DNA of 18,835 nucleotides from a virus. Its lineage: Duplodnaviria > Heunggongvirae > Uroviricota > Caudoviricetes. The notes under the pieces are model-generated. The model was not told the origin of the DNA, did not search any database, and saw only the letters and a program-made list of their open reading frames with translations. Positions 4,534 through 17,191 of the stretch are shown piece by piece. The number at the start of each line of letters is the position of its first letter. Position 1 is the first letter of the stretch. The stretch lies in IMG/VR virus record IMGVR_UViG_2529292922_000019. One strand, given 5' to 3'. The translations under genes and the position numbers were made by a program.

Positions 4534-4589
4534 AAACGGCGGCAGAGCAGTCACGGAGTAAAACTGATACCGCCAAACGTCACCAGAAA
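4534..4589 (-). ncRNA. dicF: DicF small regulatory RNA (ftsZ-targeting sRNA) with intrinsic terminator hairpin
   Basis: Reverse complement of 4537..4589 reads TTTCTGGTGACGTTTGGCGGTATCAGTTTTACTCCGTGACTGCTCTGCCGCC, matching the remembered 53-nt DicF sequence, followed by a T-run (A-run 4532..4536 on + strand). Located immediately upstream of dicB. Confidence 0.8.
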
Positions 4590-12001: not shown

Positions 12002-12347
12002 TAACACTTCCTTAATTTTCCCTTAACAATTTAGGGTGCTAAACTTTTTTGCGCAGTTTACATAAAAAAATAGTGCGTACGCAAAAACTATCTAACATGA
12101 TGAGCTTTAACCGGGAAATTTGTATATGTTGTGAGCATAAAGTTGGCTGAGAAATCTAAAACGGGTAGAATGACTGCGGGTGCTTGAGGCTATCTGTCTC
12201 AGGCATGAACACCAAAAGGCAGATAGAGAAAAGCCCCAGTTAACATTACGCGTCCGGCAAGACGCTTAACATTAATCTGAGGCCATATCTATGCTCTACA
12301 CACGTAGGTTAGCCTCTTACGTGCCGAAAGGCAAGGAGAAGCAGGCT

Positions 12348-12503
12348 ATGAAGCAGCAAAAGGCGATGTTAATCGCCCTGATCGTCATCTGTTTAACCGT
12401 CATAATGACGGCACTGGTAACGAGGAAAGACCTCTGCGAGGTACGAATCCGAACCGGCCAGACGGAGGTCGCTGTCTTCACAGCTTACGAACCTGAGGAG
12501 TAA
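12348..12503 (+). CDS. hokD: Hok/Gef-family type I toxin (51 aa), HokD/RelF-like
   Basis: MKQQKAMLIALIVICLTVIMTALVTRKDLCEVRIRTGQTEVAVFTAYEPEE, near-identical to remembered HokD. AAGGAG SD upstream. An in-frame upstream ATG at 12291 gives a 70-aa extended ORF. Confidence 0.85.
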   Translation: MKQQKAMLIALIVICLTVIMTALVTRKDLCEVRIRTGQTEVAVFTAYEPEE

Positions 12504-14010: not shown

Positions 14011-14370
14011 ATGCTCATAGATTTGGTTTTACCTTACCCGCCGACGGTGAACACTTACTGGCGACGCCGTGGCAGCACATATTTTGTATCAAAAGTCGGT
14101 GAGCGTTATCGCCGTGATGTGGCGCTTATTGTTCGCCAGCAGCAACTGAAATTAAACCTGTCCGGAAGGCCGGCAATAGAAATTATTGCAGAGCCACCGG
14201 ATAAGCGCCGTCGTGACCTGGACAATATCCTGAAGGCACCACTGGATGTACTGACGCATGCGGGGCTGCTCATAGACGACGAGCAGTTTGATGAAATTAA
14301 TATTGTGCGCGGTCAGCTTGTTCCTGGTGGGCGGTTGGGGATAAAAATCACAGAACTGGAGTATGCATGA
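14011..14370 (+). CDS. rusA: RusA Holliday-junction resolvase
   Basis: 119-aa ORF with GAGG SD. Motif PPDKRRRDLDNILKAPLDVLTHAGLLIDDEQ and overall pattern match remembered RusA. Typical position just upstream of Q. Confidence 0.85.
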   Translation: MLIDLVLPYPPTVNTYWRRRGSTYFVSKVGERYRRDVALIVRQQQLKLNLSGRPAIEIIAEPPDKRRRDLDNILKAPLDVLTHAGLLIDDEQFDEINIVRGQLVPGGRLGIKITELEYA

Positions 14371-15056
14371 ATAACCAGTATTTACAGTTTGTTCGTGAGC
14401 AACTCATGATTGCCACCGCCGATTTGAGTGGATCAACAAAAGGGCAGCTTGAGGCCTGGCAGGAGAATGCCATGTTTGATACAGGGCGTTACAGGCGTAA
14501 AAAAATCCGGTACCGCGATGAAGTGACTGGAAAAATGATAACGCGGGATAATCCACCAATCCCGGGAAAGCAATCGCTGGCGAAGGGGGCGTCAATTCCT
14601 CTCGTCAGTCCGGTTGAGTTTTTGACATCATCGTGGCGGCGGGCTGTTCTGTCTCTTGAAGAACATCATAAAGCCTGGTTGTTGTGGTGTTACAGCGGGA
14701 GTATTTGTTGGGAATATCAGATCGCGATAACACAGTGGGCGTGGAATGAATTTAATACTCAATCCGGTACCAGAAAAATTGCTGGGAAAACGCAGGAACG
14801 CCAGAAAAAATTAATCTGGCTGGCGGCGCAGGCAGTAAAAGCAGAACTTTTTGGTGGGGAAGGTTATGAATATCAGGAGCTGGCATTACTGGCGGGAGTG
14901 ACAACTAAAAACTGGTCCAAAACATTTACTCGTCACTGGGTTGCAATGAAACACATTTTTCACCGACTGGATAGTGAGGCTTTATTATTTGTAATGAGAA
15001 CACGTTCAAAACAAAAGGCGGCATTTTCAAAGCAAAGTGTTGCAAAAGTAGATTGA
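14367..15056 (+). CDS. Putative late antiterminator Q-like protein
   Basis: 229-aa ORF overlapping the rusA stop (ATGA). Position between rusA and a terminator/tRNA cluster is the canonical Q slot. Family assignment by context, not by motif. Confidence 0.55.
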   Translation: MNNQYLQFVREQLMIATADLSGSTKGQLEAWQENAMFDTGRYRRKKIRYRDEVTGKMITRDNPPIPGKQSLAKGASIPLVSPVEFLTSSWRRAVLSLEEHHKAWLLWCYSGSICWEYQIAITQWAWNEFNTQSGTRKIAGKTQERQKKLIWLAAQAVKAELFGGEGYEYQELALLAGVTTKNWSKTFTRHWVAMKHIFHRLDSEALLFVMRTRSKQKAAFSKQSVAKVD

Positions 15057-15104
15057 AAGGCATATATTTCATGCAAATCTGATATTTTGCCGATTTTGTA
15101 CGTG

Positions 15105-15137
15105 ATGGCAAAATCAAACAAAACCCGCCCACAAGCG
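15105..15137 (+). terminator. Rho-independent terminator after the Q-like gene
   Basis: Stem CCCGC (15114..15118) / GCGGG (15125..15129) with 6-nt loop, followed by T7 and preceded by an A-run (potentially bidirectional). Confidence 0.6.
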
Positions 15138-15213
15138 GGTTTTTTTGTGCCACTTATCTCGGATAGACATGGTGAATGCGCTGGTGGAGGAGATAAGGGT
15201 GATTTTTGTATGC

Positions 15214-15242
15214 TTGCAACATTGATTTCGTAACGTTATTAT
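15214..15242 (+). promoter_or_regulatory. Sigma-70-type promoter upstream of the tRNA cluster (possible pR'-like late promoter)
   Basis: -35 TTGCAA (15214..15219), 17-bp spacer, -10 TATTAT (15237..15242), about 10 nt before the first tRNA. Confidence 0.45.
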
Positions 15243-15251
15243 CCTGCGCCC

Positions 15252-15327
15252 GGCCCTTTAGCTCAGTGGTGAGAGCGAGCGACTCATAATCGCCAGGTCG
15301 CTGGTTCAAATCCAGCAAGGGCCACCA
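15252..15327 (+). tRNA. tRNA-Ile2 (anticodon CAU, lysidine type), ileX/ileZ-like, CCA encoded
   Basis: Cloverleaf folds by hand: acceptor GGCCCTT/AAGGGCC, anticodon loop CTCATAA, T-loop TTCAAAT. Near-identical to remembered E. coli ileX. Confidence 0.85.
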
Positions 15328-15328
15328 A

Positions 15329-15404
15329 CCGCCACTAGCCATCAGGAAAGAGCGTCAACCCTTTAAGTTGAGTGTGCGAGGTTCGAGTCCCCGGTGGTGG
15401 TCCA
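15329..15404 (+). tRNA. Atypical tRNA-like gene (anticodon loop CCTTTAA; weak D-stem); possibly a degenerate Arg/Lys-type tRNA
   Basis: Acceptor CCGCCAC/GTGGTGG, anticodon stem TCAAC/GTTGA, T-arm GTTCGAGTC, CCA encoded. Position 33 is C rather than U and the D-stem has only two clean pairs. Confidence 0.45.
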
Positions 15405-15417
15405 TTATCGGTATTCT

Positions 15418-15491
15418 GCGTTGTTAGCTCAGCAGGACAGAGCAATTGCCTTCTAAGCAATCGGTCACTGGTTCGACTCCAGTACAACGCG
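15418..15491 (+). tRNA. tRNA-Arg (anticodon UCU), argU/argN-like; no encoded CCA
   Basis: Acceptor GCGTTGT/ACAACGC, D-stem GCTC/GAGC, anticodon stem ATTGC/GCAAT with loop CTTCTAA, T-arm ACTGG-TTCGACT-CCAGT. Confidence 0.8.
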
Positions 15492-15507
15492 CTACACTTA
15501 TTTTCCC

Positions 15508-15533
15508 GGCTCGCTTTTGCGGGCCTTTTTTTT
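15508..15533 (+). terminator. Rho-independent terminator after the tRNA cluster
   Basis: Stem GGCTCGC (15508..15514) / GCGGGCC (15519..15525) with TTTT loop, followed by T8. Confidence 0.6.
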
Positions 15534-15619
15534 AAATGTCTCACAATTCAGACGGTTGACAGTTGTCTGTTTTGCGGGGAGTTTGTTAAGTAAGCGACTC
15601 GTCAGAACCGTATTGATAT

Positions 15620-17191
15620 TTACTGAGAGCTCAGATCAACTTTCCAGGGCAACAGATCGCGTACCCGGTTTGCCGGCCAGTCCTGGATATGTTCAATGAC
15701 GTAACGCAGCCACTTTTCTGGCTCCACATTGTTCAGACGGCATGTGCCGATCAGCGAGTACAACACCGCCGCATGTTCACCACCGCTGTCGGAACCCGCG
15801 AACATCCAGTTTTTCCGGCCTACGGCCACTCCCCGTAAGGCGTTCTCTGCGATGTTGTTGTCGATTTCCACCCAGCCATTACTGCAGTACACGTTCAGTG
15901 CATCCCACTGTTTCAGCAGGTATGCGAACGCTTTTGCCGTATCTGAGTGACGCGACAGTGTTTTCATCTGTTGCTGTATCCAGTCATACAGTGACTGCAT
16001 CAGTGGCGCGGCTCTGGCTTTTCTTGCCGCCAGACGCTGTTCTGCTGAACAGCACCGGACCTCTGCCTCGATGGCATACAGTTCACCGATACGCTGCAGG
16101 GCTTCCGTGGTGATGTAGGTGGGCGCTCTTGCATGCACATCGTGGATTTTTCTCCGGGCATGAGCCATACACGCGGCTTCCGTTATTCTGCCGGATTCGT
16201 ATAACGCCCGGTAACCACCGTAAGCATCGGCCTGAAGCACACCGCTGTAACCGGCCAGGTGATTTTGTGGATGGATACCTTTCCGGTCCGGACTGTACGC
16301 GAACCAGACCGCCGGGGGCATCTGTGAACCGGCGTTACGGTCATCACGGACGTAGACCCACAGCCGGGCTGTCCGGGTTTTACCGCTGCCCGGCTCCTGG
16401 ACCGGGACGGGGATATCATCAGCATGGACTTTACCGGGCATCAGCACATACTGGCGCAGGACGTCATACAGCGGCTCCAGCAGTTCAGCAACAGCACCTG
16501 TCCAGCGCCCCAGTGTGGCACGGCTCAGCTCCACGCCCTGACGACGGTATATTTCTGACTGGCGGTATAACGGCAGATGGTCTGCATATTTCCCGGTGAC
16601 AACATGGGCCAGAAGCCCCGCTCCGGCATAACTGCGTGCAATGGGTTTTGAAGGTACTGGTGCCTGCACGATATGGTCGCACCGGCAACAGGCCTGTTTC
16701 GGACGTTGTGTTTCGATAACCTTAAAGGCGCTGCTGATAAGCTCCAGTTGCTCTGACACATCACATCCCAGAGAACTGAGTTCACCACCACAGGCAGGAC
16801 AGCATTCCTCTTCCGGCCGGATAACCCGGGTTTCACGGGGAAGTGAGGCCGGTAACGGTTTACGGGCTGAAGACTGGCGCAGGGCGGATGGCAGTACCGG
16901 GTCATATTGCTCACCCAGCGTTTCCGCCATTTCTTCCTGAAGTGCGCTGATTCGCTCCTGTGCTTCCTGTATCTGCCGTTCGGTTTTTGCACGAAGTTTT
17001 TCTGAGCTTTTACCGAACTGCATACGTTGCAGTTTCGCAACCAGCGCCTTCAGCCGGTTGATTTCGGAAGCATAAGCCGCCACCCGCTGTGAGAGCAGGC
17101 GGTTGTATTCAGCCATCTGGCGGATGGTGTCCTGTTGCGTCTGCAACAGTGCCCGCAGGCGGGCGTTCTCATGAGCAAGTGAGGTGTCCAT
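15620..17191 (-). CDS. tnpC: IS66-family transposase TnpC (orf3)
   Basis: 523-aa ORF with N-terminal coiled-coil/leucine-zipper region and a Cys cluster, typical size and layout for IS66 TnpC. Confidence 0.85.

Follow-up and report, generated by a model that had tools for sequence, protein, structure and literature searches.

An apparently damaged, anticodon-shifted tRNA gene in the argN slot of an Escherichia coli lambdoid prophage

The viral sequence IMGVR_UViG_2529292922_000019, 18,835 nucleotides long and hereafter called the window, carries a cluster of three tRNA-type genes, of which the middle one, at 15329-15404, is the subject of this study. An initial annotation had described it as a 76-nt gene lying between a tRNA with the anticodon CAU and a tRNA-Arg(UCU), and ARAGORN found the same three genes, with exactly those ends for the middle one (Table 1). 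It starts 1 nt after the CCA of the tRNA-Ile, and the tRNA-Arg(UCU) gene begins 13 nt downstream of it. ARAGORN calls it tRNA-Lys(UUU), which agrees with the nominal anticodon UUU that had been proposed.

As read from the sequence, the acceptor stem has seven standard pairs, including G3.U70 (CCGCCAC, 15329-35, with GTGGTGG, 15394-15400), and the anticodon stem has five (TCAAC, 15355-59, with GTTGA, 15367-71). The 7-nt anticodon loop keeps the anticodon UUU and the purine A37, but position 33 is C, where canonical tRNAs have U. The T loop, TTCGAGT, is canonical, and the gene ends with the discriminator T73 followed by an encoded CCA. The T stem (CGAGG/CCCCG) has four pairs and an A51.C63 mismatch, which is common to all alleles with C33, so the claim of good acceptor, anticodon and T stems stood for the first two and not fully for the third. 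In the D region (GCC...GAGC), only G10-C25 and C11-G24 pair, or three pairs form if A23 is bulged, and the stem of 3-4 pairs seen in a canonical tRNA is missing. The D stem is weak because U12 has recently been deleted relative to otherwise near-identical 77-nt alleles, which have GCTC/GAGC. Both oddities that had been pointed out, C33 and the weak D stem, were confirmed by this reading and by alignment to the 77-nt alleles.

Table 1. Features of the tRNA locus and its surroundings in the window.
Feature	Position	Strand	Basis and remarks
DicF antisense RNA	4537-4588	-	Rfam, 72.5 bits
sok antitoxin RNA	12178-12353	+	Rfam, 117 bits; adjoins hokD toxin gene
Q antiterminator gene	14367-15056	+	Annotated in the identical E2348/69 locus
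Candidate late promoter, pR'-like	15040-15068	+	TTGCAA-17-TATATT in consensus scan; overlaps end of Q
Hairpin and T-run terminator, tR'-like	15120-15150	+	Between Q and the tRNA cluster; AAAACCCGCCCACAAGCGGGTTTTTTT
Sigma-70-like tRNA operon promoter	15214-15242	+	TTGCAA-17-TATTAT, 9/12 matches
tRNA with anticodon CAU (ileZ-type tRNA-Ile2)	15252-15327	+	ARAGORN; Rfam 72.5 bits; PGAP tRNA-Ile in E2348/69
Middle tRNA-like gene	15329-15404	+	76 nt; ARAGORN match, anticodon ttt at position 34
D arm with 1-nt deletion	15338-15353	+	U12 missing after 15339; alignment to 77-nt alleles
Anticodon loop CCUUUAA	15360-15366	+	C32, C33 (15361), U34-U35-U36, A37, A38
tRNA-Arg(UCU), argO-type	15418-15492	+	ARAGORN; Rfam 68.1 bits; PGAP tRNA-Arg
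Intrinsic terminator closing the tRNA operon	15508-15535	+	GGCTCGCTTTTGCGGGCC, then TTTTTTTT
ISEc13 (IS4-like) transposase gene	15620-17191	-	About 130 nt past the tRNA operon terminator

A promoter precedes the first tRNA gene and a terminator follows the third, so the three genes form one small operon. The promoter ends 9 nt from the first tRNA, is followed by a GC-rich discriminator (CCTGCGCCC) and is conserved in strain C8 and phage Evi. By analogy with lambdoid gene order, the candidate late promoter upstream may be pR', and the tRNA operon would then also lie in the path of Q-dependent late transcription. The tR'-like hairpin was reported by the scan on the minus strand; it is symmetric, and its T run is on the plus strand. 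In its tRNA region, the window has 100% identity with a lambdoid prophage carried by E. coli O127:H6 E2348/69, where the gene order is hokD, DUF968, RusA, Q antiterminator, tRNA-Ile, tRNA-Arg and ISEc13 transposase.

The Rfam tRNA model (RF00005), which recognizes both flanking genes, made no tRNA call on the element, either at the gathering threshold or at E<=10 over 15200-15550. The best match of the tRNA clan at the element, at E<=10, was tRNA-Sec with 15.7 bits; the gathering thresholds are 29 bits for tRNA and 47 bits for tRNA-Sec. No confident covariance call for a different fold arose, and ARAGORN gives the same fold as had been derived by hand. PGAP leaves the element unannotated in the identical E2348/69 prophage and RefSeq omits it, while some GenBank phage records carry it as tRNA-Lys. 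Other weak Rfam matches in the same interval (Plastid-ycf2 antisense to the Ile tRNA, AaHKsRNA20, RyhB and others) were treated as chance since they were far under their thresholds and overlapped tRNAs or the terminator. The open reading frames that overlap the element, 15154-15342 (-), 15335-15544 (-) and 15372-15593 (+), were also rejected; they run across conserved tRNA genes.

Three relatives of the element do pass the model. The 77-nt gene of E. coli C8, which is 96% identical to it and is annotated as tRNA-Lys in RefSeq, has C33 and scores 46.0 bits. A lysine-type relative with U33 (locus L128; 88% identical) scores 53.2 bits, and argN of the Stx2c phage 2851 (84%) scores 43.0 bits. Identity to host lysT is 57.5%, and identity to the neighbouring tRNA-Arg(UCU) gene is 52%. 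Only three differences separate the window allele from the 46-bit gene (U12 missing, G48 for A48 and U70 for C70), and thus the missing U12 explains most of the drop of about 30 bits. Its closeness to the Rfam-passing 77-nt gene and to argN of phage 2851 leads us to conclude, from sequence comparison, that 15329-15404 is a genuine tRNA-type gene and not a chance fold. The comparison with the ileZ-argN-argO clusters of Stx-type phages that the initial annotation had recommended was borne out, as the element is the counterpart of the middle gene of those clusters, which has the same order in phage 2851.

Nearest-neighbour energies separate the two alleles. For the 76-nt window allele, the cloverleaf is at -15.4 kcal/mol versus -23.3 kcal/mol for the minimum free energy (MFE) structure, a gap of 7.9 kcal/mol, whereas for the 77-nt allele the values are -22.5 and -23.9 kcal/mol, a gap of 1.4 kcal/mol. 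Unconstrained MFE folding was uninformative, with the cloverleaf being the MFE structure in no family member, accepted ones included; the z-score of the element was -1.36.

The distribution of the element was surveyed in 20,395 records from 5,426 complete E. coli genomes. The 76-nt sequence was found at >=99% identity in 222 E. coli records, in several serotypes and at least three haplotypes. Among the matches listed, none of the seven 100%-identical copies had an annotated feature. About 534 E. coli records fell in the band of 95-99% identity, and all 11 of those sampled were 77 nt long and annotated as tRNA-Lys; the more distant matches were mostly argN (tRNA-Arg). The 77-nt allele has the same loop, CCUUUAA, with an intact GCUC/GAGC D stem and G3-C70. 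Therefore, C33 is not peculiar to the window. The relative with U33 at L128 has the loop CUUUUAU and a perfect T stem.

The CCUUUAA anticodon arm with C33 was found at more than 110 IMG/VR loci and on 38 metagenome contigs, with position 32 variable among the C33 loci. A U33 version of this arm was not found in IMG/VR or the metagenomes. This absence fits selection for C33 and too little time alike, and does not decide between them. Among the GTDB species representatives, the arm occurs only in E. coli and Shigella flexneri. The element carries an anticodon arm (UCAAC-CCUUUAA-GUUGA) and a T arm (CGAGG-UUCGAGU-CCCCG) identical to those of the C33 majority allele, and departs from the 77-nt form of this sub-lineage in its length of 76 nt, its deleted U12 and its G3.U70 in place of G3-C70.

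IMG/VR was sampled twice, by the T-arm sequence and then by the 3' end of the Ile tRNA, the second sample being unbiased for the middle gene. Gene order was counted in 124 clusters: 120 IMG/VR loci, three reference loci and the window. The C33 lysine-type gene usually stands in the order Ile(CAU)-Lys(UUU)-Thr(UGU)-Gly(UCC), which was seen in 89 of the 124. The order of the window, with the 76-nt gene between Ile and Arg(UCU), was seen in 14, and two loci had the 76-nt gene followed by Thr. The partner genes for Thr and Gly match host thrU and glyT at 100% identity (in C8, L002 3209-3362), and the prophage cluster has thus captured host tRNA genes. In the host, thrU and glyT are separated by tyrU.

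Over 47 distinct family sequences, the cloverleaf was 96.3% paired, compared to 29-53% for slid controls. Between the Arg and Lys types, three double changes keep a pair: 7:66 from U-A to C-G, 27:43 from C-G to U-A and 30:40 from G-C to A-U. These compensatory changes show that the lysine-type lineage, far from being junk, evolved as a structured tRNA. The element aligns with one gap in the 47-sequence alignment and is homologous to argN over the whole gene. Relative to argN, it has the loop changes U33C, C35U and G36U and the stem changes G30-C40 to A30-U40 and G43 to A43.

The window is of the strain C8 type over 15100-15397 and of the phage 2851 type from 15376 on. Since these matches overlap, the recombination breakpoint lies within the shared T arm, in the range 15376-15398. 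Judged by these matches, the window allele is a mosaic of a lysine-type 5' part and an argN-type 3' end, and the argN-type part brought U70 (and so G3.U70), the 13-nt spacer and argO. The U12 deletion is also found on the Lys-Thr haplotype (L020, L078) and therefore either predates at least one recombination event or arose independently of it. Phage Evi (L238 1501-1577) carries an undeleted 77-nt Ile-Lys-argO hybrid with a further C7.A66 mismatch. Recombination inside the conserved T arm seems to be common in the argN-slot family. Separately, argN of phage 2851 (L003 2117-2193) combines G3.U70 and U7.G66 with the A51.C63 T stem that marks lysine-type genes and thus looks recombinant too.

Decay is frequent in the middle slot. 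When clusters were sampled by the Ile tRNA alone, 34 of the 102 newly sampled clusters had no callable tRNA in this slot. The decayed forms include remnants from which the anticodon arm is gone (L131, L091), variants whose T loop is degenerate and a recurrent 81-nt form. The 81-nt variant (L129 1122-1202 and about 25 IMG/VR loci, e.g. L140, L145 and L149) keeps the acceptor strands and has an enlarged and different anticodon arm (…GAGCAGACGACACGATAACAGGGTTGTTGG…). Its T loop is degenerate in most IMG/VR copies, while L129 keeps TTCGAGT. PGAP annotates it as tRNA-OTHER and Rfam makes no call, yet it is too frequent and too uniform to dismiss.

Within the C33 lineage, we found six kinds of pair-preserving C-to-U change and six pair-breaking changes (G24A, G24U, G42A, G52A, G72A and the loss of U12). 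The pair-breaking variants are mostly rare, the loss of U12 being the exception. Nucleotide diversity was 0.005 for the Ile gene, 0.017-0.023 for the Lys gene and 0.009 for the Thr gene. This hints at weaker constraint on the Lys gene, a hint of little weight as the mosaic flanks are no neutral yardstick. The pattern of C33 variants and slot decay fits weak constraint and is no proof that the 77-nt gene is dead.

Two further variants of the scaffold were observed. A common C33 sub-variant with C4U, U8C and C11U (L130 1489-1565, 12 IMG/VR loci and 8 metagenome loci) has stem changes that lead to G.U pairs and has C in place of the nearly invariant U8; it is under the Rfam threshold and unannotated, and a G52A T-stem mismatch is added in two metagenome copies. 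In the Yersinia phage YeP1 (L236 601-678), the same scaffold, with the acceptor CCGCCAC/GTGGCGG, stands directly after Q and is annotated as tRNA-Pseudo-TTG. Its loop, CAUUGCC, has A33, the anticodon UUG and C37. The scaffold is, therefore, found with abnormal bases at position 33 in two genera, A33 in Yersinia and C33 in E. coli.

We consider it rather probable that the element, as a tRNA, is hypomorphic or dead, and that it persists because it sits between two useful tRNAs for rare codons. According to the sequence comparisons, a sub-lineage with the lysine-type anticodon UUU arose from an argN-type tRNA-Arg(UCG) scaffold, with compensatory changes preserving its stems. C33 and A51.C63 became fixed in the most frequent branch of this sub-lineage, and the window allele then lost U12, causing its D stem to collapse. 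Recombination in the T arm with an argN-argO cluster also gave it an argN-type 3' acceptor strand, with G3.U70, and argO downstream. The initial annotation had offered a decaying tRNA-Arg paralogue as one possibility. The decay comes close to the reading that we favor, while the relatives turned out to be argN (UCG, loop CTTCGAA) and the lysine sub-lineage.

The element is presumably co-transcribed with both of its neighbours, with starts at the promoter of the operon itself and at the late promoter that depends on Q. Since its acceptor and T arms are intact and its 5' end lies 1 nt after the Ile CCA, RNase P and 3' trimming would probably release its RNA. The lack of a stable D stem and of U33 would make it a weak decoder at best. 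U33 is conserved in bacterial tRNAs, where it enforces the U-turn critical for ribosome binding, and the bacterial synthase of N6-threonylcarbamoyladenosine (t6A) reads the pairs 10:25, 11:24 and 12:23 by shape, plus 36-UAA-38 (PMC13276492). Since t6A37 needs the geometry of the D stem, which is lost here, the element would be a poor substrate for the t6A37 enzyme, and its RNA is likely to be under-modified at t6A37 and unstable. As for charging, under the identity rules of E. coli tRNAs LysRS would be the expected synthetase owing to U35, and ArgRS would be excluded owing to the loss of C35.

Several points weigh against this reading. The lack of function is a prediction from structure. Damage is absent from the acceptor stem, the anticodon stem, the T loop, G18-G19, A37 and the 36-UAA-38 motif, and with A23 bulged the D stem could have 3 bp. 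Nearest-neighbour energies leave out tertiary contacts and modifications, and argN itself folds poorly in silico. Substitutions of U33 are known to reduce tRNA function and are not known to abolish it. Also, the allele is common, with its 222 records, and is without further damage, and a tolerated, still-useful gene would look alike.

Another possible explanation, though an unlikely one, is that the element is a working tRNA-Lys(UUU) whose anticodon arm is not recognized by the anticodon nucleases AriB (of PARIS), P2 OLD and PrrC. All three target tRNA-Lys(UUU), and the window allele would still supply lysine decoding once the host tRNA-Lys had been destroyed by a nuclease from the host or from a rival phage. 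Host tRNA-Lys(UUU), a prime target of AriB, is cut at U36AAUC/A41 (the slash marks the cut), a single U39A change abolishes cleavage, and phage T5 offers a precedent in escaping PARIS with a tRNA-Lys(UUU) of its own (PMC11464382; PMC12409363). P2 OLD requires paired CNG motifs in the anticodon stem (PMC12445682). By sequence, the element has U36AAGUU41 where the host has U36AAUCA41, its anticodon stem is wholly unlike that of host lysT, and neither strand of this stem has a CNG, the CAG/CUG of argN having become CAA/UUG in the Lys type through the compensatory change of G30-C40 to A30-U40. However, the cleavage motifs of the host would be lacking in any foreign scaffold, and thus their absence is no evidence of selection.

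Other observations bear on this explanation from both sides. AAA and AAG are common codons that are already served by host tRNA-Lys(UUU) genes (lysT and lysW were seen), and a need to supplement codons therefore does not account for a phage tRNA-Lys. Position 32 varies, whereas C33 is fixed: against the C33 copies counted above, the arm has no U33 version. On the other side, pair-breaking and pair-preserving variants of the C33 lineage are roughly equal in number. The usual partner, tRNA-Thr(UGU), is the other prime target of AriB and OLD, but the partner Thr and Gly genes are identical to those of the host, and extra host ThrU gave little or no protection from OLD, which makes an anti-defence role of the cluster less likely. 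The D stem is lost in the window allele. In addition, no paper in the literature searched mentions the sequence of the element: we found no open paper with ileZ, argN and argO together, and none with the anticodon-arm sequence or on the element.

Decidedly unlikely is a broader form of this idea, in which the whole C33 family is a counter-defence device of lambdoid prophages that turned the argN scaffold into a lysine tRNA escaping AriB and OLD, with C33 itself selected. The escape would follow from the lack of the UAAUC/A site and of the CNG motifs. C33 directly adjoins the cut site of PrrC/RloC, and the 76-nt allele would then be a minimal form that is still active or else a copy disabled not long ago.

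We find it improbable that the element serves as a tRNA-like processing signal, in which the stack of the acceptor and T arms would give an RNase P site 1 nt after the Ile CCA and so set the Ile tRNA apart from both the Arg tRNA and the leader of the late transcript. The best-kept parts of the element are its seven-pair acceptor stem and its T arm, and what is damaged is the loop and the D arm. Lys-type clusters always leave 1 nt between this gene and the upstream CCA, and in the lambdoid phage of Yersinia this scaffold again follows Q, there with a different non-canonical loop (A33, UUG). However, other decayed copies in the slot are without the T loop or whole arms, and their neighbours are still intact tRNAs, so the neighbours do not need the element. 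Moreover, E. coli can use RNase E and exonucleases to make tRNA 3' ends where no tRNA follows.

It is very improbable that the element is a mischarging tRNA that receives alanine and inserts it at lysine codons. G3.U70 is the main determinant of AlaRS, and the window allele has it, as do phage Evi and argN of phage 2851. However, the element's context of C1-G72, C2-G71 and U73 is far from that of tRNA-Ala, a Lys-to-Ala mistranslator should be harmful and yet the allele is common, and an RNA with such a damaged D stem is unlikely to be used efficiently. Finally, the proposal in the initial annotation that CCTTTAA arose by a C/T swap from CTTCTAA, the loop of an argU/argO-type tRNA-Arg(UCU) now decaying, is scarcely credible: the two loops differ only by the exchanged letters at 33 and 35, and such a gene lies 13 nt downstream, but the identities (52% to that gene versus 84% to argN(UCG) and 96% to the 77-nt Lys-type allele) refute this origin, and the family alignment puts the element in the argN/Lys family.

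The ISEc13 gene downstream of the operon occupies the position of the holin and lysis genes or of a DUF6645 gene in related prophages, so the late region of the window prophage is interrupted. The sok and DicF RNAs found by Rfam in the window are typical cargo of defective lambdoid prophages. In related prophages, one to three copies of the STnc100 sRNA follow soon after the tRNA cluster (L128 2203-2905; L131 1266-1535; L003 3691-3902), and AgvB lies downstream of the cluster in one; the window has no match to STnc100 or AgvB.

The element can be set beside known systems, of which argN (in Stx-converting and other lambdoid phages such as 933W, 2851 and Min27) is the nearest. Like the element, it lies in the late-gene regulatory region with tRNA-Ile(CAU) before it and tRNA-Arg(UCU) after it; this slot follows Q in phage 2851 and the window and a DNA methyltransferase gene in some relatives. 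The two also share the scaffold, with the acceptor CCGCCA-, the D loop ATCRGGA-A, the T arm and an encoded CCA, and from 15376 onward the 3' acceptor strand, the spacer and argO are identical to those of phage 2851. In contrast to argN, the element has the anticodon UUU and not UCG, C33 and not U33, and a deleted U12; it has A30-U40 and U27-A43 where argN has G30-C40 and U/C27-G43, and C7-G66 where argN has U7-A66 (U7.G66 in phage 2851). Rfam and PGAP recognize argN and not the element.

The 77-nt tRNA-Lys of C8 (NZ_CP010125, 2617298-2617374) has the same anticodon arm, C33 loop, A51.C63 T arm and upstream arrangement of Q, promoter and Ile. Unlike the element, it has a GCUC/GAGC D stem, G3-C70 and copies of host thrU and glyT downstream, where the element has argO. 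The tRNA-Lys(UUU) of T5 is likewise phage-borne, has the anticodon UUU of the host target and an altered AriB site (positions 39-41). It was shown to work and to resist cleavage (PMC11464382; PMC12409363), whereas resistance of the element would be a prediction from its sequence; the scaffolds are unrelated, and the element has C33 and a damaged D stem. Pseudogenes and remoulded tRNA genes also carry the anticodon of another family and go undetected by covariance models after later damage. The element differs from these in its two-base anticodon shift with compensatory stem changes and in a wide spread among E. coli prophages before the damage.

On this evidence, we regard the element as a damaged, anticodon-shifted phage tRNA gene that belongs to the argN-slot family by position and homology, not by its anticodon. 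It is best treated as a damaged tRNA gene and annotated as a pseudo-tRNA, not as tRNA-Lys, which has little consequence for the window. The argN slot does not hold one gene but a fast-changing family, with a switch of anticodon from UCG to UUU, recombination in the T arm and frequent decay. As host tRNA-Lys(UUU) is a main target of PARIS, P2 OLD and PrrC, the 77-nt allele is a candidate for a prophage-borne, nuclease-resistant tRNA. This 77-nt relative is more deserving of study, and the 76-nt allele is a natural D-stem mutant with which it may be compared.

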